A stretch of 64,000 nt of DNA from an uncultured bacterium (GCA_946560065.1 CAMNUE010000002.1:78950-142949); one strand, 5' to 3'. Shown: positions 3,177 through 55,442, numbered from the stretch's first letter. Program-made: numbers and translations. The notes: generated by a model not told the origin, from the sequence alone.

Positions 3177-4049
3177 ATGAAATTCCCAGAAGAAAAAGCA
3201 GATTCCTACATCGAAAGATTAAGTGGAATATCTAATAGTATAAAAACTATTTATAATGATTTAAGTGCAAATTTTGATAATGAAAATGAAGTTGAAAAAT
3301 TACAAGAATATTTAACATTAGCAATAGAACTAGAAGATAAAATTTTAAACGAAATTGGAAAAGAGCTTTTGGAAAATGAACGATTCATAAATAGATTAAA
3401 TTATCTAATAAACAGATCAGAGCTAAATCATAAAAATGATGTAATTACTAGAATAAATAACTACATAATAGAAAGAGGTTATTTAAATCCCTTCTTATCA
3501 ACTGAAGGAAACCCAGAAGAGAAAACGCTTGAAAATTATGTTACTATTAAAAATCAGGCTGCCCTAGACTACTTTAAAAGTATAATTATGTACATAGATA
3601 GTGAATTAGAAAATCCTAAGCAAGAATTAAAGAGAAAGTTAACAACAGCAAAAAATAATTTACTATATAGCCATAAAATGGTAAGTATAATAATGAAGGA
3701 TGAGAGATATCATCAAGTAGATGGAAGAGTCAGATGTATAGTATTTAATCAAAATGAAAAATTAGTAACTGATACTTATAAAGAATATGCTTATAGTATA
3801 ATCAACTATTGTTTGTATAGTATTCTTAATAAAGATGAAAATATTTTAGAACAAATTGAATTAAAAAGTGCCTTAAGCCTTTTAGACAAAGGAGAAATCT
3901 TCGAAGTAGCAAGAAGTTATAATAAAGCAACAAATGAAGACCAAGTTTTTAAATCATTAAGCGAAAATAATCCTAATCATAATATTATTATAAACATTAT
4001 AAAAAGTTTTATGGAAAAGCATATGGAAGTAACTAATGCAAAAAAATAA
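3177..4049 (+). CDS. hypothetical protein (one of only two plus-strand CDS calls here)
   Basis: 290-codon ORF with AAGGAAG RBS about 7 nt before the ATG. It lies between two minus-strand units. No motif recognised. Confidence 0.6.
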   Translation: MKFPEEKADSYIERLSGISNSIKTIYNDLSANFDNENEVEKLQEYLTLAIELEDKILNEIGKELLENERFINRLNYLINRSELNHKNDVITRINNYIIERGYLNPFLSTEGNPEEKTLENYVTIKNQAALDYFKSIIMYIDSELENPKQELKRKLTTAKNNLLYSHKMVSIIMKDERYHQVDGRVRCIVFNQNEKLVTDTYKEYAYSIINYCLYSILNKDENILEQIELKSALSLLDKGEIFEVARSYNKATNEDQVFKSLSENNPNHNIIINIIKSFMEKHMEVTNAKK

Positions 4050-4082
4050 AATCACTTCATTACAGTGATTTTATTTTTATTT

Positions 4083-5216
4083 TTATAATTTTGTTCCACA
4101 GTTAGTACAGAATTTTCCACCAGTACTAGCTGTTCCGCAATTTGGACAGAACTTAGCACCTTCAGTAGTTGGTGCAGCATTATTCCCATTATTAGCATAT
4201 GGATCATAATTTTGTGTAGCCCCTTGATTAGTTTGGTTAGCTTGAGCATTGTTAACTACTCCACCCATAACTCCTCCACTAGCCATATTCATCATACCTA
4301 CACCCATAAATCCATTTGCTGCTCCACCTTCATTTTTAGCAGCATCTTGAACAGCTTGAGCATAAGCTCCTGTAAGCGTACCTTGTTGCATAAAACTATT
4401 AGAAGATAATTCATAATTATCGATTTTCTTATTTGACTCATCATCTAATGTAACACTTTCAACAACGAATCCAACTATATTAATACCACGATTTCTAATT
4501 GGCTGATCAAATACTTTTTCATCCATTGTTTTCTTAATTTCATCAGTACTACTTGGTAATTCTAGTACTGGAACTTTATGTTCAGAATTTCCTAGTTCAT
4601 TTAAAACGTTTTGGAAAGCTCCTACGACTTCACTTCTCATTTGTTCACATAAATCTTCTTTTTTATATTCATCAGCAACTCCTGCAACACGTGACATAAA
4701 CACTGCTGGATCATTAATTTTAAATGTATATTTACCAAAACATTTAACTTCAACTCTCAAAGGACTCATTGAACCAGTCATTTGATTTGGAATTGGATGA
4801 GACCAATCTTGAAATGGAACTGGTGCTGGGGTTCCAAACTTATTATCCATTATTTCCTTAGCATTAATATAGAAAACAGCCTGCTCTTTATTAGTTCCAC
4901 CATTATAAGTAAAACGAGTCCACATTTCTTTAAAAACAGCCCCAAATTGACCTGCAAAAAATGATGGAGAAGAAGACTGATCAAAAGTATAAATACCCTC
5001 TTCAGCAGTAGCATCTAAAATCTTACCATTTTCAAATATAATAGCTATTTGTCCAGGAGCAACTTGAATTGCACTATCCTTTGAAATAACCCCATTAGGA
5101 GTAGACACCCTCTTCATTAAAATATCATTTCCTAAATCTTCACATTTTATATACTCTTTCCATTGATCATGAAGAGTACTTGAAGCAGCAGCTGCTGCAG
5201 CTCTTATTAAACCCAT
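4083..5216 (-). CDS. SPFH/band-7-like protein with C-terminal double zinc ribbon (YdjI-like)
   Basis: ORF 4083..5243 trimmed to ATG 5216 (GGAG 8 nt upstream). MGLIRAAAAAASSTLHDQWKEYIKCEDLGNDILMKR..., C-terminal CPNCG..CTNCG. Last gene of a zinc-ribbon/TPM/SPFH triad, as in B. subtilis ydjGHI. Confidence 0.65.
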   Translation of the reverse strand: MGLIRAAAAAASSTLHDQWKEYIKCEDLGNDILMKRVSTPNGVISKDSAIQVAPGQIAIIFENGKILDATAEEGIYTFDQSSSPSFFAGQFGAVFKEMWTRFTYNGGTNKEQAVFYINAKEIMDNKFGTPAPVPFQDWSHPIPNQMTGSMSPLRVEVKCFGKYTFKINDPAVFMSRVAGVADEYKKEDLCEQMRSEVVGAFQNVLNELGNSEHKVPVLELPSSTDEIKKTMDEKVFDQPIRNRGINIVGFVVESVTLDDESNKKIDNYELSSNSFMQQGTLTGAYAQAVQDAAKNEGGAANGFMGVGMMNMASGGVMGGVVNNAQANQTNQGATQNYDPYANNGNNAAPTTEGAKFCPNCGTASTGGKFCTNCGTKL

Positions 5217-9513: not shown

Positions 9514-9542
9514 AAAAAGGAAGTTTCAGTTCTTCCTTTTTT
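9514..9542 (-). terminator. bidirectional-looking intrinsic terminator
   Basis: aaaaaGGAAGtttcagttCTTCCtttttt. Confidence 0.55.
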
Positions 9543-11256: not shown

Positions 11257-11281
11257 GTTGTTGTTCTCCTTGGTGTCTTTT

Positions 11282-11343
11282 ACCACCGACACAAGCAGTC
11301 AGCTTGTGTTTCGTCGCAATTTTCAGCGACTCATCAGGGCGAT
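11282..11343 (-). ncRNA. hammerhead ribozyme motif, type I topology (copy 1)
   Basis: Minus-strand RNA: AUCGCC CUGAUGA GUCGC-UGAAAAUU-GCGAC GAA ACACAAGC-UGACU-GCUUGUGU C GGUGGU. All invariant core positions and three stems are present. Confidence 0.8.
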
Positions 11344-11390
11344 TTTTATATTGTGTCTTTATTGTTTATTAAATTGTTTTGTTTAACAAC

Positions 11391-11615
11391 TCACTCTACT
11401 TCTTCTACATCATTTTTATTGATAGGATATTTTGTTCCCTCGTTGTCACAAGCAATATATTCCAATTCACCAAATATCAGCGCTTTCCAATCGTTTTTAT
11501 GAACTTCTTTTCCATCTAGTTCATTCATAAGTTCCGTTGTTTCATCATCCACTTTATCAAGTAGATTTTCTGTTTCTAACCTTTTTAACATTAACTCTTT
11601 TCTAAAAACTAACAT
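11391..11615 (-). CDS. hypothetical small acidic protein
   Basis: 74 aa, preceded by the shared GGAGAACAAC RBS module and promoter copy A. Confidence 0.6.
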   Translation of the reverse strand: MLVFRKELMLKRLETENLLDKVDDETTELMNELDGKEVHKNDWKALIFGELEYIACDNEGTKYPINKNDVEEVE

Positions 11616-11660
11616 TGTTGTTCTCCTCTGGTGTCATATTTCATCCTTATTTCTATACTT

Positions 11661-11689
11661 ATTATACTACACATTGTGTAGTATAGCAA
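11661..11689 (-). promoter_or_regulatory. promoter-operator copy A
   Basis: Minus strand TTGCTA-N17-TATAAT. The spacer plus the first 2 nt of the -10 form the palindrome TACTACACAATGTGTAGTA. Confidence 0.75.
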
Positions 11690-11693
11690 GTTT

Positions 11694-11882
11694 TTATTTA
11701 CCTTTTTTTTCACTGTTAATTAAAATTTCATCCAGGGCATCGATTTGTTTTTGAAGTTCAAATTTTAAATTATTAGCTATTTCTTTTTGAGAGTATTTTT
11801 CCCTTATCGAACCCAAGGTATTATATAAAATATATGATAAATCCTCGATAATAAAAAATAATGTTTTTTCTTTTTTATTCAT
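11694..11882 (-). CDS. hypothetical small protein
   Basis: 62 aa; overlaps the end of the upstream gene by 8 nt (coupled). Confidence 0.45.
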   Translation of the reverse strand: MNKKEKTLFFIIEDLSYILYNTLGSIREKYSQKEIANNLKFELQKQIDALDEILINSEKKGK

Positions 11883-12951
11883 GATAATCCCTTTCTATTT
11901 TTTTGTTTTCCTGATTATTCACAACTTGATTGATCGTGATCGGCAATTCTGAATCATCCAACATTTCTTGATGAATGATTGATGGAGCAATCCAATTCAA
12001 TTTTAGTTGTCGGTTTTGTTCTTTCTTGCTACCGATCCAGTAATGATGCCAATGTCCTTTGCGAACATGAGGTCTTTTTTGGCTTCCATTCTTTTGCAAG
12101 ACAATTATTTTTTGCCTATTATTTATCGGTTCTGGAATAGCAACATCATTAGCATGTACTTTTACTGTCTTTCGAATAACTTCTGATATTTTTCTTCCAC
12201 ATTCAAATTGACGTACTTCTTTGTATTGATCTTTAATTACTGCTCTTTTCTTATACACCTTTCCATCTTCATTTTTTTCACTAATTTCCGCATTCTGTGC
12301 ACAAATATAAAGCAGAAGCTGCATCACAGAAGTAACTAACCGAATATATTGCTCTGCTTGATTTTTATAATCCTGTTCAGAACAAGGATGCCTTTTTTGC
12401 GTAAAAGATGAATATTGATCGAAAAAATGTGAAAACACATTCTTTATATTTTGACCTTTTGCTACGTAAAGTGGCACTGGAATTAGTAAATCTTTGGTTA
12501 CTAGCATCAAACGAAATTGCTTTTTATTATTCTTTACTAGATAAAAAGCAAAAAAACCAAGTATATCCATAATATTTAAATTCTTAGTTTCAATAAAGAT
12601 ACATGAATAAGGAAGATTTTGTAAAACATCTACGGGAACATTAAAATCTTCCGTCGCTTGCTCATATAAAAGTTTTTCCAGTTCTCCGTAAAAACTATAA
12701 ATTTGTTTATTTTTTCTCCACATACTCAATGCTGTGAGCATTTCTAAATCAATCGCAACAGAACTCATATAGTCAATCTTATCCAACACTTTCCGTTCCT
12801 TGCTCATAACTATACGAGCTATTGACTTGATGGTTGGAGATTCCTCATTAGAATTCAGGCACTTTTCATATTCAATTTTTTCCCAGCATTTTGTATAATT
12901 CTTGGAATATAACTTTACAAGTTCCAAAGGAACGCAAGTTGATTTACTCAT
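11875..12951 (-). CDS. hypothetical protein
   Basis: 358 aa; overlaps the ssb stop by 8 nt. C-terminal RPHVRKGHWHHYWIGSKK motif, not assigned to any family. Confidence 0.6.
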   Translation of the reverse strand: MSKSTCVPLELVKLYSKNYTKCWEKIEYEKCLNSNEESPTIKSIARIVMSKERKVLDKIDYMSSVAIDLEMLTALSMWRKNKQIYSFYGELEKLLYEQATEDFNVPVDVLQNLPYSCIFIETKNLNIMDILGFFAFYLVKNNKKQFRLMLVTKDLLIPVPLYVAKGQNIKNVFSHFFDQYSSFTQKRHPCSEQDYKNQAEQYIRLVTSVMQLLLYICAQNAEISEKNEDGKVYKKRAVIKDQYKEVRQFECGRKISEVIRKTVKVHANDVAIPEPINNRQKIIVLQKNGSQKRPHVRKGHWHHYWIGSKKEQNRQLKLNWIAPSIIHQEMLDDSELPITINQVVNNQENKKIERDYHE

Positions 12952-13288
12952 CTTGCGCTCCTTGATTTTTAAAACTTAGAAATTCAATTTTCTCAACCAG
13001 AATAAACATTCTTTCGACTGAGTTTCCATTTTTATTTACATATTTATTTTTATCCAATTTGCCTTCAATCAACACACTAGCTCCTTTGCTTGTGTATTTA
13101 CACAACATTTCAGCGGTTTTATTCCATGCCGTGCAATCGACAAACAATGTTTCTTTTTCTTTGATAGCTAAACCAAAATTGACTACTTTTGATTCTCCAA
13201 AAGTTTTCAATTCCAAATTTGTTGAAATACGCCCAGTAACAATTACTTTATTCATAAAATATTCGGAGCGGACATACACGATTCTCAT
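12944..13288 (-). CDS. ssb: single-stranded DNA-binding protein (OB fold), no canonical acidic tip
   Basis: MNKVIVTGRISTNLELKTFGESKVVNFGLA...FVDCTAWNKTAEMLCKYTSKGASVLIEGKL. GGGAG RBS supports ATG 13288; the alternative start is 13255. Ends ...KNQGAQDE rather than D-D-D-(I/L)-P-F. Confidence 0.8.
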   Translation of the reverse strand: MRIVYVRSEYFMNKVIVTGRISTNLELKTFGESKVVNFGLAIKEKETLFVDCTAWNKTAEMLCKYTSKGASVLIEGKLDKNKYVNKNGNSVERMFILVEKIEFLSFKNQGAQDE

Positions 13289-13386
13289 GAGAGGAAACTC
13301 CCTTTTTCTCCCTGTTTGTTTTTACATCCTTTGTTCCTCATTTTAAAATTTGATTTTTCTAAAAAGATTGTTTGTCTACCTTCTTA

Positions 13387-13854
13387 TTAGACTTTCCAAT
13401 CAAGCGGCTGTCCACATCTTGGACAATGGCTTGGCTTTTCTTCGTAATAATTAAGACCACATTTAGGACAAAGCGGAACACTGCATTTTGGCGTATACCG
13501 CCAATTTGGCTCTTTTGGTTTGGAGTTATAAAATTCGAAGAAAAATGTTCCATCAAATGGCTTCAAGTTAATTACTCCAAAGCTCATACTTACCTTTACG
13601 TTATAATCATTCGCAATCCACTCATGCAGCGTTTTTAAATACTCTCTAAGCCCTTCCAGATCCATCAAATTCTTATAGTGATTACACAATTCACAGCTCG
13701 GAAACAAATTGTCAAAGTCATTCGTTCCACCCTGACGGATAGACTTTACATAATCAACTTTCATATCTTTCAAGTCGATTTTTTCTCCACAATAAGCGCA
13801 ATGCCCATCGAATTTATCGTACACATTTTTTTGCACACTTTTTGAAAAGCTCAT
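13387..13854 (-). CDS. HNH-family protein with C-terminal zinc ribbon
   Basis: ORF trimmed to ATG 13854 (13869 is GTG). CAYCGEKIDLKDMKVDYVKSIRQGGTNDFDNLFPSCELCNHYK. C-terminal CPKCG..CPRCG. Confidence 0.75.
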   Translation of the reverse strand: MSFSKSVQKNVYDKFDGHCAYCGEKIDLKDMKVDYVKSIRQGGTNDFDNLFPSCELCNHYKNLMDLEGLREYLKTLHEWIANDYNVKVSMSFGVINLKPFDGTFFFEFYNSKPKEPNWRYTPKCSVPLCPKCGLNYYEEKPSHCPRCGQPLDWKV

Positions 13855-13865
13855 CTTATTTTCCT

Positions 13866-14057
13866 TCACTTTCTATTTTTTTCAGAACGCCATAATAATT
13901 CGTAATAAACAATCACTAAATCAAACAGAATCATTCCAAAAATCAATTCAACCCAGCTCTTAGACCAATAACCGATAAATCCAGCTATTGTCAGCATAAG
14001 CGCATAAGGAAAGAATTTTACCGCCTGGGAAAAAAGTTTCTTCACTTTTTCCATCAC
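13866..14057 (-). CDS. small two-helix membrane protein
   Basis: 63 aa, hydrophobic (FFPYALMLTIAGFIGYW; IFGMILFDLVIVYY). Overlaps both neighbours by 4 nt. Confidence 0.5.
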   Translation of the reverse strand: MMEKVKKLFSQAVKFFPYALMLTIAGFIGYWSKSWVELIFGMILFDLVIVYYELLWRSEKNRK

Positions 14058-14947
14058 TTAGACCTTTCTGCTCGAATGAATGCCGTAGTAATATGATTCA
14101 ATTCTTCATCTTCCTTTAAAGCAATCAAAATGCGATCTAGATCGAAGATATTTGCATACGTGATTGTCAACTTTTTTTCTGAGATTGTTACACCTGCATC
14201 TGTAACATCAATGATGTGTTGTTTAACATCTTTCAGTATTTCCTTAATCGCATCTGTTGTACCAGAAGCAGTTTTTTGTTTTTTAGCAGATTCTTTTTTT
14301 TGTTCTTTTCCCGAAAATTCACCCGTCAAATATTTTTGAACCTGGCGACCAGAAATATTTGATCCATCACGATTCATGAAATTGGTTTTTGTTGCAATCC
14401 AATCTCTTTTAGAAATTCCTTTCTGTAGGTATCTTTTTTCTTCCAAAAGTTCAGCTTGGAATGGATTGTCTGTAGCTTTAATCTGCCGATCCAGTTCTTT
14501 ATCCTTTTGTTTGTAATGTTCATAAACTTTTTCGTAATTTTGAATAATAACACGTTTATCATCTTCAGATAAATACCGCTGATGATTATCTCCCATTATC
14601 ATCGCCATTTCCTCAGCTTCAGTTTCAGGCTTACGAACCACATACATCGGGAACATTCCATCATGGCGACCTTCCTTATATAACAACAAAAGTGCCCTGT
14701 AGCGTGTCTCACCACCAATCAGCGTATAATGTTTTCCATCATCATCTTCTTGATAATAGACACGCCCATTATTGACATTTTCTCGTTCAATTTCGTTTGC
14801 CAGCGAACGGACCTCTTCATCATAAATGTGAAAGAAATTCAGCTTATTAGGACGAATATCATTCACGTGAATAAACTCAAACGTTGGCTTATTGCTCGCC
14901 ATCTGTTCCCCAACTGTCCCAGTATAAATTTCCTCAAGCATGCTCAT
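14054..14947 (-). CDS. ParB/Srx-like nuclease-domain protein
   Basis: IHVNDIRPNKLNFFHIY...HYTLIGGETRYRALLLL (ParB-type GxxRxxA box). Confidence 0.75.
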   Translation of the reverse strand: MSMLEEIYTGTVGEQMASNKPTFEFIHVNDIRPNKLNFFHIYDEEVRSLANEIERENVNNGRVYYQEDDDGKHYTLIGGETRYRALLLLYKEGRHDGMFPMYVVRKPETEAEEMAMIMGDNHQRYLSEDDKRVIIQNYEKVYEHYKQKDKELDRQIKATDNPFQAELLEEKRYLQKGISKRDWIATKTNFMNRDGSNISGRQVQKYLTGEFSGKEQKKESAKKQKTASGTTDAIKEILKDVKQHIIDVTDAGVTISEKKLTITYANIFDLDRILIALKEDEELNHITTAFIRAERSK

Positions 14948-14998
14948 ATAGCAATCTCCTCTCTGTCAAATGACTTCTTTTTGTATACCACTTAAAAT

Positions 14999-15007
14999 AT
15001 TATAACA
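14999..15007 (-). promoter_or_regulatory. extended -10 promoter element for the ParB-like operon
   Basis: Minus strand TGTTATAAT about 45 nt before ATG 14947; no good -35. Confidence 0.4.
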
Positions 15008-15029
15008 TTGTTTTGTTGGATAAGAAAAA

Positions 15030-15042
15030 GGAACTGAGTTCC
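15030..15042. repeat. GGAACTNAGTTCC palindrome, copy 1
   Basis: aaaaaGGAACTGAGTTCCttttt; intergenic, 72 nt after the stop at 15114. Confidence 0.9.
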
Positions 15043-15113
15043 TTTTTCTATTCACTTATTCAATGCCATAAATTTCTTCCTAGTCAGGAATTTCAGACAT
15101 ATCGTACACATGT

Positions 15114-15452
15114 TTAATCATCCTGTTCTTCGCCCTTCTCAATTGCCAAAAGCTTTTTTCGGCAAGCGTCATATTGAATGTATTCTCCATATCCATTGCT
15201 GAGCATTTCGGCTGCTTTAACGGCTTCCAAAACCGTCATCCAATAATAGTCGTAATCCCATACTTCTGGTCTTCCTTGTTCGCAATCAATATCTGCTTTT
15301 TCAATTTTAGCCACAAATTCATCGCTATTAAGATTATATTTGCTGTAATCCGTATCTCCAATTTCTGGAAGTTCGTCTACAATGATTGCATTAATATAGT
15401 ATGCAGTATTTGTACTTTCATTGGTGTTTGTTTTAACTTCAATTGTTTTCAT
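15114..15452 (-). CDS. hypothetical acidic protein (cassette gene)
   Basis: ORF 15114..15524 trimmed to ATG 15452, which carries the shared GAGGAGAACAAC RBS. The longer ORF would read through promoter copy B. Confidence 0.65.
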   Translation of the reverse strand: MKTIEVKTNTNESTNTAYYINAIIVDELPEIGDTDYSKYNLNSDEFVAKIEKADIDCEQGRPEVWDYDYYWMTVLEAVKAAEMLSNGYGEYIQYDACRKKLLAIEKGEEQDD

Positions 15453-15495
15453 GGTGTTGTTCTCCTCTGGATGTCTCATCCTTATTTCTATATTT

Positions 15496-15524
15496 ATTAT
15501 ACTACACATTGTGTAGTATATCAA
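15496..15524 (-). promoter_or_regulatory. promoter-operator copy B
   Basis: TTGATA-N17-TATAAT with the perfect palindrome TACTACACAATGTGTAGTA. Confidence 0.8.
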
Positions 15525-15862
15525 TCTTTTTTGCTTTTTATTTTGTCATTTGTGATGTAAATGTAACCAATAAGCATTCTTGAAATATCTGGAATTTTCT
15601 TTCGATCCCACACCCAGGATTGTATGGTTCGTGGGTTGATTCCTAGATATTTCCCTATAATCTCAAACTTTGCTGTTTTATTTATGTTAAAAAATTCTTT
15701 TGGGGATGCTTTGGCAACATGCCAGATTTTAGACAGTAGATCTTCTGTCAAACCACTCTTCTGATTTTCCATTTCGGAAATCTCGTTTAAAAATTCTTCA
15801 ACACTATTTTTCTTTAAAGCTATCTTGTACAAAAATACATATAAATCATATTTAATGTTCAT
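15521..15862 (-). CDS. putative HTH DNA-binding protein
   Basis: Trimmed to ATG 15862 (AAAGGAG 8 nt upstream). IIGKYLGINPRTIQSWVWDRKKIP resembles an HTH. Confidence 0.5.
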   Translation of the reverse strand: MNIKYDLYVFLYKIALKKNSVEEFLNEISEMENQKSGLTEDLLSKIWHVAKASPKEFFNINKTAKFEIIGKYLGINPRTIQSWVWDRKKIPDISRMLIGYIYITNDKIKSKKD

Positions 15863-15876
15863 TCTGTATACTCCTT

Positions 15877-16623
15877 TCAATAATTCGGTTCAATTGAAAG
15901 ACTAGATTTCAAAATTTCCACCTTTTCATCCAATTCTAAAAAAGTTGCTTTTTTATAAAAAATCCTTTCTTCCAAAACCGTTCTTTCCTTTCCATACTGA
16001 TCGATATAATCGACTACACTATTCCCATTTTTGCTCATTCTTAATTCTCGTACACGATCGGGATAACACATTAAATATGCGCCAATACAATCAAATGGAA
16101 TTTTATATATTTTTTCAAACTTTTTTTCGTTGCTTAAAATAGTTATCTCTTTTTCTTCCCACTTTATTTCAAAATACTCATTTTCAAGTGCTGCCCATTG
16201 TTCATTAATCACAATGCCTTTCAGGCAAGTATTTTCAACTGCTTTTGCAAACAATGAAATATCTTTTGGATTAAACTTTTCTTGAATGACATGAAATGGT
16301 TTTGCATCGCCGTCGTGATAAACAAATACTTGTACTAATCCTGATTTATTTATAAAAATTCGAATTGCTCCAACCTCTGTTCCACCTTGATTTTCTTCAT
16401 ACCAAACTGTAAATGGTGGAATGCGATCGTTCACATTCCAATCAAATTCAAATCCATTTTGACGATCATCATAATAGGTGTAACCTAATTTGTACTTTTC
16501 CTCAGTGCTTAAATAAGAGCAGGCTCGATCGATCCATTCTTGAATCAAACTAACTTTAAATTCACGTGGCTTTTTCATTATATTTTCCTCCTGGTTTTTA
16601 CTTGTTTTCTTCCGAAAATTCAT
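15877..16623 (-). CDS. hypothetical protein (cassette gene)
   Basis: Trimmed to ATG 16623 (shared AAGGAGAACAAC RBS). The alternative ATG 16578 has AGGAGG. Confidence 0.6.
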   Translation of the reverse strand: MNFRKKTSKNQEENIMKKPREFKVSLIQEWIDRACSYLSTEEKYKLGYTYYDDRQNGFEFDWNVNDRIPPFTVWYEENQGGTEVGAIRIFINKSGLVQVFVYHDGDAKPFHVIQEKFNPKDISLFAKAVENTCLKGIVINEQWAALENEYFEIKWEEKEITILSNEKKFEKIYKIPFDCIGAYLMCYPDRVRELRMSKNGNSVVDYIDQYGKERTVLEERIFYKKATFLELDEKVEILKSSLSIEPNY

Positions 16624-16670
16624 AGTTGTTCTCCTTCTTAGATGCCTCATCCTTTATCTTTACGTCTTAA

Positions 16671-16699
16671 ATTATACTACACGTTGTGTAGTTATACAA
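16671..16699 (-). promoter_or_regulatory. promoter-operator copy C
   Basis: TTGTAT-N17-TATAAT; operator arms ACTACAC/GTGTAGT with centre AAC. Confidence 0.7.
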
Positions 16700-16720
16700 T
16701 ATTTTTTGTAGTTTCACCCT

Positions 16721-16744
16721 AAAAAAAGCCGCTCATCGAGCGAC
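16721..16744 (-). terminator. intrinsic terminator
   Basis: Minus strand GUCGCUC-GAU-GAGCGGC followed by U7. Confidence 0.7.
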
Positions 16745-16786
16745 CTTCCTTTTAATGATTAAAACCTCATTTTTCTATAAGATCAA

Positions 16787-17119
16787 TCAGTCTTCAATGA
16801 TTTCCGATTTCACAACTCTAAAACTTCCTTTGTTTGCCCAATAATTTGCGACGGCTTTCTCGCTATCAGCACCATCAGGCACATAATGCGGAATTATAAG
16901 GATAATCTCATTATCCTTCTGCCGTAGCTTAAGTACCGTATTCAACGGAAGCGTGATGCCGTTGATCGTGATCATGTATTCGTCGCCAATCGTTTCGTAA
17001 ATTTCGTATTCATCTGGAATTGTGATTTCCACGTTGTCGTATATGTCCGAGCAAATGAATGGAACCCTCAAAAATTTACCAAAATTTGAATAACCAATTT
17101 GACCTCTAACCTTTGTCAT
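16787..17119 (-). CDS. hypothetical protein (cassette gene)
   Basis: 110 aa with AGGAGGAAG RBS; flanked by promoter copy D and a terminator. Confidence 0.65.
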   Translation of the reverse strand: MTKVRGQIGYSNFGKFLRVPFICSDIYDNVEITIPDEYEIYETIGDEYMITINGITLPLNTVLKLRQKDNEIILIIPHYVPDGADSEKAVANYWANKGSFRVVKSEIIED

Positions 17120-17184
17120 TTTAATCTTCCTCCTTTTTACTTTGATTTCTTCTTAGATATTTTATCCTTTATCTTTACGCCTTT

Positions 17185-17213
17185 ACTATACTACACTACG
17201 TGTAGTATAGCAA
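17185..17213 (-). promoter_or_regulatory. promoter-operator copy D
   Basis: TTGCTA-N17-TATAGT; operator TACTACAC-GTA-GTGTAGTA. Confidence 0.7.
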
Positions 17214-17223
17214 CATTTCTTTT

Positions 17224-17248
17224 AAAAAAGTCGCTTATTTCAGCGACT
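17224..17248 (-). terminator. intrinsic terminator
   Basis: Minus strand AGUCGCU-GAAAUA-AGCGACU followed by U6. Confidence 0.75.
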
Positions 17249-17789
17249 AATATACCTCTTTCATTATTGTAAACAAACGACCAGCAAGTGGATTTTGTTC
17301 ATACGTTTCCATATACAATGTTGGTACTTTATATTTTTTCTTTATGTTCTGGATTTCATTGGCTGATTGACAAGCCTTTTCTACATCAAAACTTTGTAAG
17401 TTTTCAATACTAGATTCAATCGAATCAATGCGAGTTTGGATCAAACTTCTAAATTTATCAATATCGATTCGATTTTCATCATCTGTAATCGTAGTTGTAT
17501 ACCTGTTTCCGTTTGATCCTTGGAAGTTAATACCATACATGTGTCTATCTACAAATTTTAATGGATGCATTTCATAGATGCCATAAGGATTTTTCCAAAT
17601 ATTCCATGTCGTATTTTCTGTTAAGAAATTACAAAAACGTTTATTTAAAATTTTTTTATTCCATTTTTCAAGGTTAGGAACTTCCAATAAACTTGAAATT
17701 TCTTTTTTCAATGCGGTATATGCTTCTAATTCAGCTCGATAAGTAGATTTAATCGTTTCGATTTCCTTTTCAGTAAAAGTTGCTATCAT
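17247..17789 (-). CDS. hypothetical protein (cassette gene)
   Basis: Trimmed to ATG 17789 (GAGGAGAACAAC RBS). The longer ORF would read through the hammerhead. Confidence 0.65.
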   Translation of the reverse strand: MIATFTEKEIETIKSTYRAELEAYTALKKEISSLLEVPNLEKWNKKILNKRFCNFLTENTTWNIWKNPYGIYEMHPLKFVDRHMYGINFQGSNGNRYTTTITDDENRIDIDKFRSLIQTRIDSIESSIENLQSFDVEKACQSANEIQNIKKKYKVPTLYMETYEQNPLAGRLFTIMKEVY

Positions 17790-17810
17790 GTTGTTCTCCT
17801 CTGGTGTCCT

Positions 17811-17867
17811 ATCACCGACACCCTTGCGAGTGTTTCGTCGCAATTTTCAGCGACTCGTCAGGGTGAC
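17811..17867 (-). ncRNA. hammerhead ribozyme motif, type I topology (copy 2)
   Basis: GUCACC CUGACGA GUCGC-UGAAAAUU-GCGAC GAA ACACUC-GCAA-GGGUGU C GGUGAU. Stems I and III differ from copy 1 but still pair. Confidence 0.8.
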
Positions 17868-17884
17868 TTATCCATTTCAAATCT

Positions 17885-18193
17885 TTAATCAAAATTTATA
17901 GGGCAGATTCGATACAGAATCTGTACCTTCCCCTCAATTTCGTAAACACATCTATCATCAGTAAGTTTCAAGTAGCGTTCAATTGGTTCTACTATGTTCA
18001 CTTCTCCTTTACCTTGCTTCATTATCTGGATAAAGCAATCTGGAATGTTTTCCATCTCTTCATGAAGATCTCGAAGAATTTCCATGTGTGCTTCTTCCTT
18101 TGTGTCATGTAGGAGACTTCCTACAATCACAGTTTGGCATTTTGGCGATCCCTTAAACCATGGATATGTTGCAGTTACGATGTATTTTTTCAT
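17885..18193 (-). CDS. hypothetical protein (cassette gene)
   Basis: Trimmed to ATG 18193 (AAGGAGAACAAC RBS). Confidence 0.65.
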   Translation of the reverse strand: MKKYIVTATYPWFKGSPKCQTVIVGSLLHDTKEEAHMEILRDLHEEMENIPDCFIQIMKQGKGEVNIVEPIERYLKLTDDRCVYEIEGKVQILYRICPINFD

Positions 18194-18236
18194 AATGTTG
18201 TTCTCCTTTGGATGTCTCATCCTTATTTCTATATTT

Positions 18237-18265
18237 ATTATACTACACATTGTGTAGTATAATAA
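18237..18265 (-). promoter_or_regulatory. promoter-operator copy E
   Basis: TTATTA-N17-TATAAT with the perfect palindrome TACTACACAATGTGTAGTA. Confidence 0.7.
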
Positions 18266-18274
18266 ATCTTTTTA

Positions 18275-18301
18275 TAAAAAAAGTCGCTTATTTCAGCGAC
18301 T
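18275..18301 (-). terminator. intrinsic terminator overlapping the last codons of 18293..18604
   Basis: AGUCGCU-GAAAUA-AGCGACU followed by U7; the same hairpin as at 17229-17248. Confidence 0.7.
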
Positions 18302-18604
18302 CATCAGGCAATTCAATTCTCTAAACCATTTATCATAATTTGCACATGAACAATAACCAGCTGACGCCAACACAAAATCATCAACCATTGTAGATAGACG
18401 TTCATCTGAATCTTCACCTACTAACACTTGTATATTACCGTTCGACAAATATTCTATCTGACAATCCATAATTGGTTGAAACTCTTTATATCCTTCTTCT
18501 GTCAACTCCATATTTTCCCATACAAATGTTGCTGTCGCTTCAAAATCACCAAACAACTCACAATCAAAATCTTTTCTTGTGTCTAACAGTTCTTTCAATG
18601 TCAT
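18293..18604 (-). CDS. hypothetical protein, paralogous to the N-terminus of 28995..29792
   Basis: ELTEEGYKEFQPIMDC here versus VLTEKGYNYFKPIMDC in the 265-aa protein. Confidence 0.65.
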   Translation of the reverse strand: MTLKELLDTRKDFDCELFGDFEATATFVWENMELTEEGYKEFQPIMDCQIEYLSNGNIQVLVGEDSDERLSTMVDDFVLASAGYCSCANYDKWFRELNCLMSR

Positions 18605-18643
18605 TTTTTCTCCTCCAAGGTGTCTTACCTTTTATCTGCCTTT

Positions 18644-18672
18644 ATTATACTACACTTTGTGTAGTTTATCAA
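18644..18672 (-). promoter_or_regulatory. promoter-operator copy F
   Basis: TTGATA-N17-TATAAT; operator arms ACTACAC/GTGTAGT with centre AAA. Confidence 0.7.
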
Positions 18673-18685
18673 TTATTTTTCGTTT

Positions 18686-19432
18686 TTAACGTTCTATTTT
18701 TCTAAGAATTGCATGAACAAAATGCCGATCTGATCCATTTAGAAATGATGAAAGAGTACTGCCTGTATCAGCACATGTATATAACGTTACTACGTTGTCA
18801 TTTTCTGATACTTCTATATTTGTTGGATAGAAACTCTTTGCTGTTACTTCATCCATATAGAGCTTCAAACTCTCCCTATTTTGTATATCGGGCTGATTAG
18901 AAGTCGAAGTTGCTTTTTCACAATATGCAGAAAAAATATCCGCTTGATAAACCGCATTTGGAGTAATGACCTGAAAAAATGTATTTTCTAAAAAGTAGGT
19001 TTTATTCATATAATTTTTTAAAAATGTAAAATGCCCACTTCCCTTAAAAATGCTATGTCCATAAATAAAAGTATTTAAACTCGTGAAATTTGGGTTAGAA
19101 CGATAATCCATAAAGATTGATCCTTGTTCATCATATTTTTTATATAGATTTCTATTCAAATAAAAGTCATTATCAGAAGTTTGTAAAACTGGAAATGATA
19201 AATCAAGATTTGGAAAATAAAGAAAGGCAACCACATCATCATTGATTGCCCATATTTTCTCAAATGCATTTTGAATTGACGAGCGATCATCCACCTCGAT
19301 CGAATCGACTGTTTTTTCAATCTTATCGTCAATTCCGTTTCTTTCCAGATTTTTTAAAGCAAAAAGAATAAGTGGTATCAGTGACCCAATTAAAGTTAAA
19401 TACAGGATACACAGTATAATTTTTCTTCTCAT
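18686..19432 (-). CDS. srtB: class B sortase
   Basis: N-terminal TM; INDDVVAFLYFPNLDLSFPVLQTSDNDFYLNRNL...GSIFMDYRSN...NTFIYGHS...VVTLYTCAD...RHFVHAIL. Its start overlaps the relaxase stop by 4 nt. Confidence 0.8.
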   Translation of the reverse strand: MRRKIILCILYLTLIGSLIPLILFALKNLERNGIDDKIEKTVDSIEVDDRSSIQNAFEKIWAINDDVVAFLYFPNLDLSFPVLQTSDNDFYLNRNLYKKYDEQGSIFMDYRSNPNFTSLNTFIYGHSIFKGSGHFTFLKNYMNKTYFLENTFFQVITPNAVYQADIFSAYCEKATSTSNQPDIQNRESLKLYMDEVTAKSFYPTNIEVSENDNVVTLYTCADTGSTLSSFLNGSDRHFVHAILRKIER

Positions 19433-21141
19433 AGTTTTTCACTCTCCGCATTTAATGAAGAGTAATACTCCTTCACCTGTTCCCTACCTTCTTTTGAAAT
19501 CATTTCTAACTGCTCACCAGAAACACTATCAACCTTTTTATTGTTTTCATCGTAAAGATCATAAGTCTTGTCATCAATCAAATACATGACTGCACGTTTT
19601 TCAAAATTGCTCCAGGCAACTGACTTTTTATCCAAATAAACATACTGTTTTGTGTATGGAAGTTTGACACAATAAAAGTCATCAGTAGTTCTTGAATAAT
19701 CAATCATATTGTTGCTAAATGACATTCCCTTAATATAACCGTTCATTTCTAAAGACTTGCCTCTGATTCGTTCCAGCTCGGTCATCCTGCTTTTTAGATA
19801 AGTAATGTACGAATACTGCTTATTCGCTTCTCGTTTCTCTTTTGTGCAGGCGGAAAGAAATTCTCGAACTTCGCTTAGTTCAGGATTTCCTAGTTCTTCA
19901 CTCGCTTGTAAATGTTTTAAAACCGCTTCTGTCGGCTCAATCTTTTCAAAACTATGTAATTGGACTTGCTCTTCATAAATTTTAAAATCGTTATACGTTT
20001 CCAAATAAATTCTAGCAAGCGGTTCATTCTTCAAAAATTCCGTTGTTAAGGACTTTTGTTTTTCATACTCCGCTTGTCGTTCTTCCAATTCCATTAAAGT
20101 TTCTTTGATACGATTCTGTAAATCCTCATACGAATATATTTTTTCCTCATTTAAAAAATCAAGTGCCTTGATTAACTGGTTATAGCGTTTCTTTTCCTTA
20201 TATCGGCTGTTGTAGTATTTCGGATAATAATCACGTTTTGCTAAACCCTTGGTGGAATTTTTGATAGCAATCATAGAATTTGTAGCTGTCTCTTTGATTG
20301 ATGAAAAAGATCCATGAACATCTGGAATTTTTTCAAAATAAAATTGATAAGAATCTCCATTCCTCGTTTTTTCACGATAAAACTGTCTAAGCGCATCCTC
20401 ACTATATTCCTCTCCTAACTTGTGTAATCGTGTGAATCGCTCCTTTCCAAACGGCTTAACGCTAATATACTTTCCTCGTTTAATTTCATATCCTTCAAGA
20501 GCTAAATTTTCAAGTAATTCATCCAGGCTATTCGTTTCTTCTTTCACTTTTTCAATTTTATCAATAATGATCGACTTCCAGGAAACAGTGGATTTTTCAT
20601 AACTGGCATCCTTGGTTCCATCGTAGTTCTTTCCTTTAAAACGACCAATCGTTTTCAGTTCATCCATCACATGACATCCATATTCCTTTGCAACTCGATC
20701 ACTGGCTTCTCGAAGTCCATAGAGTCCTTCTTTTTTGTTTGCTAGGCGATCCTCTAACTTTCGCCCGCTTAAATTTGTTGCGTTGATTACGATATGGTTA
20801 TGCAAATGCCCTCGATCGACATGCGTACAAACGACACATTGATAATCGGAATAAATTTCTTTACATAACTTCAAGCCGATCTCATTCGCTATTTCAGGTG
20901 TAATGTCATCCCTAATATCGAACGACTGAACAACATGATAGGCGACACGTTCATCTTGCTCATTGTGATATTTTGCTTGAACCGCTTGCATCTCATGTTC
21001 TGCAAAACGGAGATTGCAGTTATACGCACTTTTTAAAAGACCGTGGTCGGTCTTTTCTTCATTTTCGATATAGTTTAAACATTGTGATAATCCACTTCCA
21101 TTTTCCCCAGCATGAATTACTATTCTTTTTGTGTATGGCAT
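19429..21141 (-). CDS. MobA/VirD2-type conjugative relaxase
   Basis: Histidine triad THVDRGHLHNHIVINA in the N-terminal domain. The last ~85 aa resemble the primase C-terminal repeats. Confidence 0.9.
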   Translation of the reverse strand: MPYTKRIVIHAGENGSGLSQCLNYIENEEKTDHGLLKSAYNCNLRFAEHEMQAVQAKYHNEQDERVAYHVVQSFDIRDDITPEIANEIGLKLCKEIYSDYQCVVCTHVDRGHLHNHIVINATNLSGRKLEDRLANKKEGLYGLREASDRVAKEYGCHVMDELKTIGRFKGKNYDGTKDASYEKSTVSWKSIIIDKIEKVKEETNSLDELLENLALEGYEIKRGKYISVKPFGKERFTRLHKLGEEYSEDALRQFYREKTRNGDSYQFYFEKIPDVHGSFSSIKETATNSMIAIKNSTKGLAKRDYYPKYYNSRYKEKKRYNQLIKALDFLNEEKIYSYEDLQNRIKETLMELEERQAEYEKQKSLTTEFLKNEPLARIYLETYNDFKIYEEQVQLHSFEKIEPTEAVLKHLQASEELGNPELSEVREFLSACTKEKREANKQYSYITYLKSRMTELERIRGKSLEMNGYIKGMSFSNNMIDYSRTTDDFYCVKLPYTKQYVYLDKKSVAWSNFEKRAVMYLIDDKTYDLYDENNKKVDSVSGEQLEMISKEGREQVKEYYSSLNAESEKL

Positions 21142-21155: not shown

Positions 21156-21581
21156 CTAATCTTCAAATAATTTTTCCTGTTTTGAATAGACCTCTGGATT
21201 GTTACAAACTTTACGAACCGAGACCCAAAGCACATTATTTATCAAACGAATCAATTCAGCAACTAGATCGGTGATTTCTTGATTCTGCTTTTTCAATTGT
21301 TCTTTATCCAAATTCGATAAATCTGTCCGCATCATGATTTTTTCCTGTTCCAATCCGAATCGATCAATTCGCTCAATTAAACGATTCACACATTCATTCA
21401 CTTCTGATTTTCCGTGTAAATCCTCTACATAGATATTTTCGTAAATTCCAGCAGCTCTTAAATAGTCAGATAAATTTTGAAATCCATAGCGTTCCATTTT
21501 TTCTTTCAGCAATAATCGTTCTTCATCATTCAATAAAACATTCACTCTTTTTCGTTTGTCGTCTAATACTCTTCTTGCCAT
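21156..21581 (-). CDS. mobC: MobC-like relaxosome accessory protein
   Basis: RVNVLLNDEERLLLKEKMERYGFQNLSDYLRAAGI, immediately upstream of the relaxase. Confidence 0.7.
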   Translation of the reverse strand: MARRVLDDKRKRVNVLLNDEERLLLKEKMERYGFQNLSDYLRAAGIYENIYVEDLHGKSEVNECVNRLIERIDRFGLEQEKIMMRTDLSNLDKEQLKKQNQEITDLVAELIRLINNVLWVSVRKVCNNPEVYSKQEKLFED

Positions 21582-22165
21582 ATTCCTCTTTTTATCTCCT
21601 GCAACAATCTTTTGTATTCATATAAGTTTTCAATGTACTTTTCCTTATAGACATTTTGCTCGATCCACTTCACACCTTCTGCCGACACGACCGTTTTTTT
21701 TGCTACCAAAGAAACAGTTCCTGGATTTTTGTTTTTCAATCTTCTAATAGCTGAATTGATGCTATTTAAAGATTTTTGAAAATAGATTGCCAATTCCTTC
21801 ACGTTCATAGATCGATAAGCGACTGGATCTTTTTTTATCTTCAACTCCTGCTCTAATCGCTTAATATTTTTCTCAACAAAAATGACCTCAGCTGTCTTAT
21901 AAGGTACATCATAGTTCAAGTATACTTGCTCGATCCACTTCACACCTTCCAGATACATCCACAATTCTTGTTTACCCTCAATATTCGTTCGATAGAAGAG
22001 CCACCGATCACCTCGATGGCTCTTCTTACACTTTTCTCTAATCCACTTCATCTGACGATTCGACAGTTCAAGCTGCTTTTGAACATCCGAAAATCTAATC
22101 CTCTGAAATTCCAATTTTTTCACCCCTCTCCAACTATACAACGTTGACGGCTTTATATATAGCAA
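21563..22165 (-). CDS. putative DNA-binding protein with an internal duplication
   Basis: EGVKWIEQ occurs twice; the HTH-like stretch is MNVKELAIYFQKSLNSINSAIRRLK. The ORF-track start is TTG, so the true start is uncertain. Confidence 0.5.
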   Translation of the reverse strand: MLYIKPSTLYSWRGVKKLEFQRIRFSDVQKQLELSNRQMKWIREKCKKSHRGDRWLFYRTNIEGKQELWMYLEGVKWIEQVYLNYDVPYKTAEVIFVEKNIKRLEQELKIKKDPVAYRSMNVKELAIYFQKSLNSINSAIRRLKNKNPGTVSLVAKKTVVSAEGVKWIEQNVYKEKYIENLYEYKRLLQEIKRGIWQEEY

Positions 22166-22480
22166 GCATGGTGTGCATACACACCTTTTCGCTTGTTAGG
22201 GGAGACCCCTAAGACCCTTTATCGTAGAAATTCAAACCCATGAATTTCAAATTTTTAGGTTCATTTCTGAAAAGGAATAAACCTGGTATAAGTAATTTTT
22301 TTCTTCCTTGCATCTTGTTTTCCCCTTTCGTTTATCCTGTATCTGTGGGATGATTTTATCCTTTAAATTTTCAGTTATCAATATTTTTTGATGCTTTCCA
22401 CCGCTCTTTTGAATGTTGTAAGAATCTGTAGAACGGAATATTCGAATCAATTTTTTTATAGTTATCATCTTGATTGGAGA
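22166..22480 (-). other. candidate oriT / relaxase-operon promoter region
   Basis: Non-coding DNA upstream of the mobC operon with inverted repeats at 22170-22185, 22196-22212 and 22227-22248. No nic site identified. Confidence 0.4.
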
Positions 22481-54225: not shown

Positions 54226-55209
54226 TTAAGCATATTCAAGTTCTTCTTCTCTTTCCATAATTTCTTGTCGTGCTTGCTCTGGATCTTCGGCAAACAGTAC
54301 ATAAAATTCACCATAAAAGGTCGCTACAGTATCACAATCCCCCTTTCCTAGTTCATAATCATTGATTTCAATGAGTGTGTCAATATCTAAAATACCATAT
54401 CGATCATGTATCAACTCTACATCGTGAATCAACTGATTATAGTCCTTCATTGTATATGTACCATCTTCAAATTCTGCGGGTTCCAAAAACCATGTATAAT
54501 TATCGCTTGCATCTGCGGTTTGGTACATATCTTTCATGATTTTTCCAAATTTATTTATATCTAATTTTTTGTTTCTTTGATTTTGTGCGGTTCTTCTCAC
54601 AGCTTCCATTCTATCCTGCGATAATATTTCTAAATATTCCTGATTCGTTGTTCCCTGTGCAAGCGTCATTTTCTCCTGGAATGATAAAGTATTTATAGAT
54701 AAGCCATCATTCATTTTTTCAATTGTCTTTTCAAAGATCCATTCCTTACACTTTCTTTCTAACTTTTTAAAGTCACAAAAATATCGTCCAATTTTTGCTT
54801 TATTTCTTAGGACATTTGAGTAAACAGAATGAGCTTTTATTTGAATGGCTTCACTATGTTCATTACAAAAATTAAGTTCTTTGCTCATCAAAATGCGATA
54901 ATCTTGATCTTCTTCTTTCCATATCTGTTTTAATCCGATTTCTGAATCTGGAACAGGAAACATAAAGGAAAAACGAAGACTCCCTACAGGAATCCCACCA
55001 ACACGAATAACATAGTTGCTTGAAACATCTCTATTGAAAGAAGAAACTGGCACATAATACTTCATCCCATTTATTTTAAAAATGACTCCACACAAGAATT
55101 TTTGGTGAGAGTCATATACAATATTCGGCACTTTTGGATCAAACTTTTTTAAGTAATCTATGTAATCAATATTAACATCATAAAAACCAATTCTATTATT
55201 TCTCTTCAT
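54226..55209 (-). CDS. ToxN/AbiQ-family (type III toxin) domain fused to a ~155-aa C-terminal domain
   Basis: Trimmed to ATG 55209 (AAAGGA RBS). RIGFYDVNIDYIDYLKKFDPKVPN...GVIFKINGMKYYVPVSSF...LRFSFMFPVP...FCDFKKLERKCKEW. Ends EREEELEYA. Confidence 0.7.
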   Translation of the reverse strand: MKRNNRIGFYDVNIDYIDYLKKFDPKVPNIVYDSHQKFLCGVIFKINGMKYYVPVSSFNRDVSSNYVIRVGGIPVGSLRFSFMFPVPDSEIGLKQIWKEEDQDYRILMSKELNFCNEHSEAIQIKAHSVYSNVLRNKAKIGRYFCDFKKLERKCKEWIFEKTIEKMNDGLSINTLSFQEKMTLAQGTTNQEYLEILSQDRMEAVRRTAQNQRNKKLDINKFGKIMKDMYQTADASDNYTWFLEPAEFEDGTYTMKDYNQLIHDVELIHDRYGILDIDTLIEINDYELGKGDCDTVATFYGEFYVLFAEDPEQARQEIMEREEELEYA

Positions 55210-55436: not shown

Positions 55437-55442
55437 ATTCAT

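Follow-up and report, generated by a model that had tools for sequence, protein, structure and literature searches.

A 64,000-nucleotide stretch of DNA from an uncultured bacterium (GCA_946560065.1, CAMNUE010000002.1:78950-142949), here called the window, reads as a Gram-positive conjugative plasmid. Between positions 11661 and 18672 its minus strand carries six copies of one promoter whose spacer is filled by a palindrome, together with the gene for a 113-amino-acid (aa) protein that is the candidate repressor of all six. The architecture of this array, its conservation and its probable mode of control are discussed below.

The six promoter and operator copies

A 29-bp promoter-pattern match of the window recovered the six copies, lettered A to F, at the minus-strand positions and with the hexamers that the original prediction had assigned to them. 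Copies A (11661-11689, TTGCTA-N17-TATAAT), B (15496-15524, TTGATA-N17-TATAAT) and E (18237-18265, TTATTA-N17-TATAAT) each contain, as had been claimed, the perfect 19-mer TACTACACAATGTGTAGTA, with a 9-1-9 arrangement. The operator reads AACTACACAACGTGTAGTA in copy C (16671-16699, TTGTAT-N17-TATAAT), TACTACACGTAGTGTAGTA in copy D (17185-17213, TTGCTA-N17-TATAGT) and AACTACACAAAGTGTAGTA in copy F (18644-18672, TTGATA-N17-TATAAT). Common to the six is the spacer signature TACTACAC-N3-GTGTAGTA, for which approximately zero occurrences are expected by chance. The last two bases of the 19-mer are the invariant TA of the -10 hexamer on the promoter strand. A variable end base had been described for copies C and F, and it does exist, but it is the first base of the 19-mer, beside the -35 (AACTACAC...), and not the last.

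All six spacers are 17 bp long, and in a generic promoter scan copies F and B come out on top among the sigma-70-like sites of the region. The six modules quite likely serve as sigma-A-type promoters for an array of accessory, anti-defence and partition genes of the plasmid. Searching for TACTACACNNNGTGTAGT with no more than 2 mismatches returned 12 strand-hits, which represent 6 sites because the operator is palindromic; shuffled sequences gave 0.05 hits, and 0 of 100 reached 12. The mismatch distribution over the 64-kb window shows a clean gap between sites with 0-1 mismatches and those with at least 4. When up to 5 mismatches were allowed, no further operator rose above chance in the 64 kb, shuffles giving about 28 matches at this setting. 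As the relaxed pattern adds chance-level matches only, the window holds exactly six operators, all within 7 kb.

The palindrome of copy E extends beyond the 19-mer, to 35 nt with 16-bp arms (18233-18267). Through this extension its -35 (TTATTA) complements the -10 region, and either strand of the site can be read as a promoter.

Transcription units, leaders and terminators

The array comprises six units on the minus strand, each driven by the copy whose letter it bears. Unit F consists of a 103-aa open reading frame (ORF; 18293-18604), unit D of a 110-aa ORF (16787-17119) and unit B of a 112-aa ORF (15114-15452). Unit E has a 102-aa ORF (17885-18193), a hammerhead-like element and a 180-aa ORF (17247-17789), and unit C has a 248-aa ORF (15877-16623) followed by the regulator gene (15521-15862). 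Unit A starts with a 74-aa ORF (11391-11615) and runs through a second hammerhead-like element to ParA, whose true ATG lies at 11256, and three small ORFs, with a terminator at 9514-9541. Searches of Pfam, PHROG and NCBIfam gave no function or family for the cargo ORFs of units A to F (74-248 aa), a profile that cargo for establishment and anti-defence typically shows.

The leaders are less uniform than had been proposed. A shared hairpin of the form GGAUG-AGA-CAUCC is present in B and E, and in C and D it is weaker, with a G-U pair; leader F forms a different hairpin, AAGGU-AAGAC-ACCUU, and leader A forms none. These assignments come from single-sequence folds, since RNAalifold on MAFFT-aligned leaders misaligned the two hairpin classes and gave no consensus. 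The ribosome-binding site (RBS) block that was thought to be nearly invariant, GGAGAACAAC-N0-3-AUG, is found in four leaders (A, B, C and E) as well as downstream of the two hammerhead-like elements, while D and F carry variants. Terminators built on a GUCGC stem had been said to end most units, which overstates their number, as they close only three of the six. On the minus strand these are GAGUCGCUGAAAUAAGCGACUU followed by a U run in unit F (18281-18302), a GUCGC/GCGAC stem in unit E (17229-17248) and the variant stem GUCGCUC-GAU-GAGCGGC followed by U7 in unit D (16721-16745). Despite these exceptions, the unit is a standardised cassette made up of a shared-stem terminator, a promoter with its operator, a leader hairpin and the GGAGAACAAC RBS. 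The same cassette probably also serves as recombination homology for the swapping of cargo genes.

Both hammerhead-like elements lie on the minus strand. The one in unit E (17811-17867) sits between the two cistrons and contains CUGACGAG ... GAAAC ... GUC; the one in unit A (11283-11375) sits between the 74-aa ORF and ParA and has the same stem II. The core and helices of a hammerhead are recognisable in both, with stem II formed as GUCGC-UGAAAAUU-GCGAC. No element matched in an Rfam scan at gathering thresholds. Below those thresholds, 17811-17867 scored 25.2 bits against RF00163 (E=0.019; gathering score 34), while 11283-11375 and its equivalents in related elements scored 29-37 bits against RF03152, the window element reaching 29 against a threshold of 56.3. 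The predicted 3' product of 17811-17867 starts GGUGAUAGGACACC-AGAGGAGAACAAC-AUG. In both cases the predicted 3' cleavage product opens with a short hairpin (GGUG...CACC) and then carries GGAGAACAAC-AUG, an arrangement that resembles the synthetic RiboJ insulator.

The GUCGC stem of the unit terminators is also stem II of both hammerhead-like elements. A CUGAUGA lies upstream of the 18281-18302 stem, so that the terminator of unit F resembles a relic of hammerhead stem II, as if a hammerhead had become a terminator or the reverse. A further motif, GACAC(C), lies 1-3 nt 5' of the Shine-Dalgarno sequence in leaders A and F and after both hammerheads (for example at 11633-11640, 17812-17822 and 11270-11282). 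It recalls the ACAC in the operator half-site and might be an RNA-level recognition element, as for Aca2, or the 3' arm of a hairpin. More speculatively, the leader hairpin and GACAC(C) together might add a layer of RNA-level control by analogy with Aca2.

Conservation of the cassette in related elements

Exact-pattern scans and protein look-ups identified relatives on contigs L002, L003, L005, L007-L012, L014 and L015. Contig L002 is from an Erysipelotrichales metagenome-assembled genome (MAG) of mouse gut, and L014 and L015 are from 62-kb contigs. Gene order in the relatives is as in the window, with relaxase, sortase, array, ParB-like, single-stranded DNA-binding protein (SSB), AcrVA2-like and ParA genes. 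The search of related elements for the operator that had been suggested at the outset proved productive, as the cassette recurs in L002, L003, L005, L007 and L014/L015. There a GUCGC-stem terminator is followed by TTGnnn, the palindrome and TATAAT, then by an A-rich leader whose hairpin has 4-6 bp, and finally by GGAGAACAAC and ATG.

In a comparison of 22 distinct modules, the arms of the palindrome reach 2.0 bits, meaning that they are invariant or nearly so, while positions 4-6 of the -35 hold about 0.65 bits and the three central operator bases vary freely. Arm variants do occur, namely TACTACAT in the P0003 lineage and TACTGCAC in the P0008 lineage, where the regulator has diverged. These changes affect one or both arms (TACTACAT-AAT-ATGTAGTA and TACTGCAC-GAT-GTGCAGTA) and are sometimes symmetric. 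Invariant arms, a free centre and symmetric arm variants are together the signature of a site for a dimeric protein and not of a neutral spacer.

It is improbable, in our judgement, that the identity of the six copies reflects only recent duplication or gene conversion of a cassette, with a palindrome that has no ligand or that acts as a DNA hairpin or single-stranded DNA element in transfer. Such homogenisation would fit the fact that the whole cassette of about 110 nt, from terminator through promoter and leader to RBS, is repeated, well beyond the palindrome, and that cargo genes differ between relatives while cassette boundaries persist. The ability of copy E to form a hairpin with 16-bp arms would also fit. 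Within the cassette, however, the arms are the best conserved part, and divergence is seen in the adjoining 3' half of the -35, in the centre and in the leader. The arm changes that preserve dyad symmetry argue the same way, as does the constant dyad position in distant members of unrelated sequence, described below. A hairpin confined to the spacer, moreover, cannot make the -35/-10 duplex that Frpo makes. An Frpo-type single-stranded promoter was rejected on this ground, the palindrome spanning the spacer only and the -35 of copy E pairing with the -10 itself; no long flanking inverted repeat of the Frpo type was seen around the promoters. Identity of the palindrome as a recombinase core site was likewise rejected.

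Pattern scans with ACTACACNNNGTGTAGTATAAT gave 2 matches in genome contigs, 2 in metagenome contigs and 0 in viral contigs. One isolated exact match, TACTACACATAGTGTAGTATAAT at 2767-2788 of L001 (a Mycoplasmataceae MAG), lies 12 nt 5' of an ATG and has neither a recognisable -35 nor any other feature of the cassette; it is probably due to chance, about 4 matches being expected in a collection of that size. A match in L004, with an 18-bp spacer and a GC-rich leader, was judged to be chance or unrelated.

Sub-threshold hammerhead matches also recur between cistrons in the relatives (L014 14559-14644, L002 3022-3113, and L003 6334-6425 and 8835-8911), and one of them precedes ParA. The array of L014 includes an ORF with a DarA_C domain (3749-4108).

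The candidate regulator

Two proteins had been put forward as cognate regulators of the array. The first, the 113-aa product of 15521-15862 on the minus strand, holds up as a candidate, as it belongs to a family with an Xre/HigA2-type helix-turn-helix (HTH) that is linked to the operators. It is made up of an N-terminal helical domain and a C-terminal HTH, with helices at 66-73, 77-84 and 92-104 and invariant residues R78, T79, W83 and P91. Its gene closes the copy C unit, with a stop codon that runs into the -35 of copy B. Among the close relatives the HTH homologue is without exception followed by an operator-promoter that begins at its stop codon, and this linkage holds in L008 despite a differing backbone with a 454-aa relaxase and an inserted serine recombinase.

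The protein matches phrog_25567 with E=3e-9. By itself it gave 2 matches in a word-based search and 5 matches among 1.8 billion representatives, and tblastn against plasmids gave no match. A first PDB profile search, made before homologues were added, was empty, and a first AlphaFold2 model built from 3 sequences was uninformative with Foldseek. The profile was then enlarged with a homologue from Streptococcus phage Javan242 (28% identical) and the P0007 homologue, and in this form it recovered 91 family members, some of which are named HTH proteins by NCBI or UniRef. An alignment of 39 members shows the invariant motif R-T-x-x-x-W...P. The corresponding profile (A5) matched PDB entries 2ppx_A (E=1.8e-4), HigA2 (E=0.007-0.009) and 3mlf (E=0.014), and the matches to XRE/HigA2 proteins span profile positions 51-96, the C-terminal 45 residues. 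An AlphaFold2 model made with the 39-member alignment has a mean-confidence score (pLDDT) of 82 and places three C-terminal helices in the order seen in Xre proteins. Its top Foldseek matches are the C-terminal domain of HigA2, Aca11, SinR, ImmR, YdaS and the N-terminal domain of AcrIIA15. These profile and model matches indicate an Xre/Cro-type HTH DNA-binding domain in the 113-aa family.

In two larger proteins the HTH-like segment of the family (...RT.Q.W....IP.Y...) is repeated in tandem, with 9 copies in P0004 (1312 aa) and 2 in P0005 (319 aa), an architecture that is unusual for an Xre-type motif.

The second candidate, the 200-aa product of 21563-22165, did not hold up. Searches of Pfam, NCBIfam, PDB and named homologues gave it no support for DNA binding, and it accompanies the relaxase module and not the promoter architecture.

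Promoter palindromes of the distant homologues

Distant members of the family, at 21-30% identity, were placed in eight contexts, four of them prophage regions and four other short contexts. In seven of the eight the operon with the homologue is preceded by a perfect palindrome, which in six lies inside the 17-bp spacer of a TTGAYA-N17-TAxxxT promoter; the prophage members carry full TTGACA-N17-TATAAT promoters. The palindrome differs by protein subfamily. It is (C)ACGCA-A-TGCGT(G) in L013, L016, L017 and L019, several of which have two copies, and TCACGT-N3-ACGTGA in L020 and L021, where both loci have another copy immediately 5' of the -35. In L006, two copies of the related TCACG-N5-CGTG precede the homologue's gene. 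Despite this divergence, the dyad centre falls at spacer position 10 in all 11 promoters measured, which cover three operator classes and, among the distant loci, L013, L017, L019, L020 and L021, and the half-sites of the three classes align on the core ..AC..A. Among the proteins checked, the HTH protein is the only one always present, and the window has no homologues of the HTH-gene neighbours that were checked (a zinc-ribbon DZR_2 protein, an AP2-like protein, a 68/95-aa partner and 75-aa and 129-aa proteins). The fixed dyad position and the constancy of the HTH protein across operator classes are strong, though indirect, evidence that the family consists of cognate spacer-binding autorepressors.

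Two features of the prophage-type loci may concern cargo. A small conserved protein with the motif AE[AK]WLN..[FY]DFR[DE]R is always encoded directly 5' of the HTH gene (L013 3698-3985, L016 3698-3985, L020 2153-2359, L021 3779-3985), and in L020 a Cas7-like gene (PF05107) lies directly 3' of it. It is possible that both are anti-CRISPR cargo.

The prophage loci also bear on whether the palindrome could be the operator of another protein, such as the 200-aa product, the ParB-like protein in the manner of KorB, a small protein encoded after ParA (with the operator doubling as a centromere, as for omega of pSM19035) or a host factor. Dispersed palindromes double as partition sites in the case of both KorB and omega, copy A controls the ParA operon, and the ParB-like protein is kept in the relatives. 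The 200-aa protein has a very weak HspR/MerR-like match (E=0.018). Against this, the 200-aa protein is without relatives in Pfam, in PDB or among named proteins, the ParB_N match of the ParB-like protein is weak (E=0.0016), and the ParB-like operon itself has no operator. None of the alternative binders occurs in the prophage loci that share the promoter geometry and the HTH homologue, and another binder is disfavoured because no alternative protein accompanies the promoter architecture outside the plasmid lineage; we regard it as unlikely. To our knowledge the palindrome is unlike the LexA, CcpA, CodY, Rex, Fur and NrdR boxes, and these known host regulators were rejected as its identity.

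The 113-aa protein could instead act as an activator or a sigma-like specificity factor, with the spacer as a positive recognition element. In this respect the -35 hexamers are only TTGnnn, and a weak match to ArpU, a family that regulates late genes of phages, falls below threshold (E=0.007; 16.6 bits, cutoff 43.1). The 17-bp spacer is optimal, however, and with a -10 consensus of TATAAT the promoters should be strong unaided; the complete TTGACA and TATAAT hexamers of the prophage members point the same way, and the homology is to repressor-type HTH domains of the HigA2/Xre group. MerR-type activators that bind the spacer need spacers of 19-20 bp. MerR-type regulation was rejected, spacers being 17 bp in the six copies, in the relatives and in the prophage homologues examined, and activation by the 113-aa protein seems to us highly improbable.

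Proposed mechanism

Taken with the comparative data, the 19-bp spacer palindrome is probably the operator of a dimeric Xre/HigA2-type HTH repressor, the product of 15521-15862. The core of the original prediction, in which one dimeric repressor occludes six sigma-A-type promoters as a single-switch regulon, is supported by comparative evidence. The site occupies the spacer of near-consensus promoters with 17 bp between their hexamers and reaches two bases into the -10, so that RNA polymerase should be shut out by a dimer bound there. The candidate repressor is encoded by the final gene of the copy C operon, and the protein would therefore repress itself as well as five other units, the ParA operon included. 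Being made from its own target, it would be under negative feedback.

In an established host all six promoters would be kept repressed. Once the DNA has entered a naive cell that lacks the repressor and has become double-stranded, the near-consensus promoters would fire together and would remain on until the repressor accumulates, giving a transient burst. From the sequence we infer binding and repression by the 113-aa protein, its dimeric stoichiometry and the transfer burst of the regulon. Zygotic induction can reasonably be inferred by analogy with p576 and the Aca systems (PMC6294495, PMC8708921); experiments have demonstrated a circuit of this logic for Reg576 of p576 (PMC6294495) and for Aca proteins.

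Several observations weigh against this account. The 113-aa protein alone has only sub-threshold Pfam matches (HTH_17, E=0.025; YdaS, E=0.0024), and the Foldseek matches of the model have E values of about 1, none being 1e-3 or lower. Many of the class-W modules come from close relatives, so that their conservation partly reflects shared ancestry or gene conversion. Among the distant contexts, L018 has imperfect palindromes only, and the L013 promoter copies at 3295 and 5024 cannot count as independent, since they are duplicates that barely differ along about 70 nt. The operon at 11875-14947, with its ParB-like, SSB and AcrVA2-like products, has its own promoter without the operator. Finally, with an origin of transfer (oriT) upstream of the NikA-like gene, the array would lie on the side that usually enters late, and not on the classical leading side; anti-defence islands of leading regions lie on the opposite side of oriT from the relaxase, with their genes on the transferred strand (PMC11541004).

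Relation to known regulatory systems

The closest functional parallel is Reg576 of the Bacillus pumilus plasmid p576, which has been experimentally shown to control four autoregulated establishment promoters (PMC6294495). Like the Reg576 establishment regulon (EGeRS2; PMC6294495, PMC8708921), the window combines a Gram-positive conjugative plasmid with clustered sigma-A promoters of small 'establishment' genes. In p576 one plasmid-encoded repressor acts on all of these promoters and also on its own operon, as is proposed for the window, and in both the model is transient derepression after transfer. The components differ, as Reg576 is a ribbon-helix-helix protein whose sites are direct-repeat heptamers (dual TTATCCC motifs) mainly 5' of the -35, bound by two cooperative dimers (PMC6294495). 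The window instead has a candidate Xre-type HTH and one inverted repeat centred in the spacer, with no sequence relationship to Reg576, and it has six promoters, including that of the partition operon, where p576 has four. Membership of the Reg576 family was ruled out, the operator being the inverted repeat TACTACAC-N3-GTGTAGTA and the candidate an HTH protein.

The circuit itself is closer to that of the anti-CRISPR-associated (Aca) repressors. These bind inverted repeats within anti-CRISPR (acr) promoters, between the -35 and -10 in the case of Aca13, and several operons are regulated (PMC12282945, PMC13551039). According to a 2026 survey, Aca proteins often control neighbouring operons, and their promoters are followed by a structured 5' untranslated region and a fixed start codon, a layout that the cassettes of the window match. 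Aca1, Aca2, Aca11 and Aca13 are small HTH proteins encoded in the operon that they repress (PMC6765145, PMC12282945, PMC13551039). The same arrangement is found here, with the candidate regulator gene in the operon driven by copy C and an inverted repeat in the operon promoter, and it is shared by the relatives and the prophage homologues. Anti-defence neighbours are also Aca-like, with the AcrVA2-like protein in the window, DarA_C in relatives and the Cas7-like gene in L020. No validated acr gene was found in the operator-controlled units A to F, the AcrVA2-like ORF lying in the neighbouring operon that lacks an operator. The motifs of the 113-aa family are absent from the published table of Aca11-13 and AcrIIA24-32 sequences. 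The 39-member profile matched no solved Aca structure in PDB by sequence, and Aca11 is a weak fold match only. Unlike Aca systems, the window has six promoters, includes partition genes and is a conjugative plasmid.

Among repressors of known structure, HigA2/Xre proteins (PDB 5j9i, 8a0x, 2ppx) give the best sequence and fold matches to the C-terminal domain and are dimeric binders of palindromic operators. HigA2 is, however, an antitoxin with an N-terminal segment that neutralises its toxin. The N-terminal helical domain of the 113-aa protein, about 55 aa long, is unrelated to that segment, and no partner toxin is apparent.

For the circuits of R388 and RP4, an overshoot of transcription after entry into new hosts has been described, also termed zygotic induction (PMC7314908, PMC3937220). 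The kor and ard circuits (KorA/KorB of IncP RK2/RP4; ArdK with CUP repeats in IncN pKM101) and the R388 network resemble the array in having repeated operators, few repressors and negative feedback, and in placing repeated promoter-bearing elements before anti-restriction and ssb-type genes. The CUP repeats on which ArdK acts are hundreds of bp long, and KorB is a ParB homologue that acts at a distance. The kor and ard proteins and operators are unrelated to those of the window and belong to Gram-negative hosts. In function, the array would be a p576-type establishment regulon and an Aca-type circuit.

Plasmid context

The window carries a Rep_3 initiator (57469-58617), a MobA/VirD2 relaxase (19429-21141) and a type IV secretion system (T4SS), and the array is located downstream of the relaxase gene. 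The remaining backbone includes ToxN, LPXTG pilins and sortases, a DnaG-type primase, a T4 coupling protein, VirB4 and PrgI, with further genes for a CHAP/lysozyme protein, an N6/N4 methylase, a NikA-like protein and a class-B sortase. Megablast of 11300-19500 against plasmid and phage collections gave no match.

Beyond the array, the operon at 11875-14947 encodes the ParB-like protein (14054-14947), an HNH protein, SSB and a 358-aa protein. The 358-aa ORF (11875-12951, minus strand) is 71% identical to a relative's protein that bears PF26125 (AcrVA2-like), while a Pfam search of the ORF itself gave no match. On the other side of the array, a class-B sortase-like gene (18686-19432, minus strand) matches TIGR03064 with 146 bits, just under the cutoff. 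Translational coupling joins it to the end of the relaxase gene, an arrangement kept in L007, L014, L015 and L022.

A candidate oriT region lies at 22170-22235 (minus strand), upstream of the operon of the 200-aa, NikA-like and relaxase genes, and consists of TTAGGGG-TCT-CCCCTAA followed by GGTGTG-CATA-CACACC. Elsewhere, a 338-aa ORF (54226-55242, minus strand) carries the ToxN type III toxin domain, and no ToxI-like tandem repeats were found near it within 55000-56900. In L014 and L015 a tyrosine integrase is encoded beyond the ParA operon (about 17700-18860), so some members of the lineage may be integrative; the window has the Rep_3 initiator instead.

Implications for establishment and anti-defence biology

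The strategy described here is itself known. What is apparently new is a seemingly undescribed regulator family, its fixed operator geometry and the inclusion of a partition operon. A wider reading, which we offer tentatively as plausible rather than probable, is that phrog_25567-type proteins (about 101-123 aa, with an N-terminal helical domain and a HigA2-like HTH) form an undescribed Aca-like repressor family whose promoter-operator unit has a fixed geometry (dyad at position 10, 17-bp spacer, ..AC..A). This unit may move between accessory operons of streptococcal prophages and conjugative elements of Erysipelotrichales. In the plasmid lineage it may have been multiplied into a master switch of at least six cassettes with anti-defence or establishment cargo and partition genes, and the hammerheads, hairpin and fixed RBS would act within the operons as RiboJ-like insulators.

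With the operator and the HTH family as a sequence handle, one can look for establishment and anti-defence cargo in the poorly studied conjugative elements of Gram-positive gut bacteria and in streptococcal prophages, much as Aca genes have served in finding anti-CRISPRs, and the cargo ORFs of units A to F are prime candidates for new proteins of this kind. With three operator classes that share one geometry and differ in their specificity bases, the family lends itself, as a small natural system, to the study and re-engineering of HTH specificity. As natural analogues of synthetic-biology parts, the standardised cassettes and their putative ribozyme insulators are likewise of interest. As a concept, the array links the Aca-type control of phages and the zygotic-induction regulons of plasmids as one strategy.

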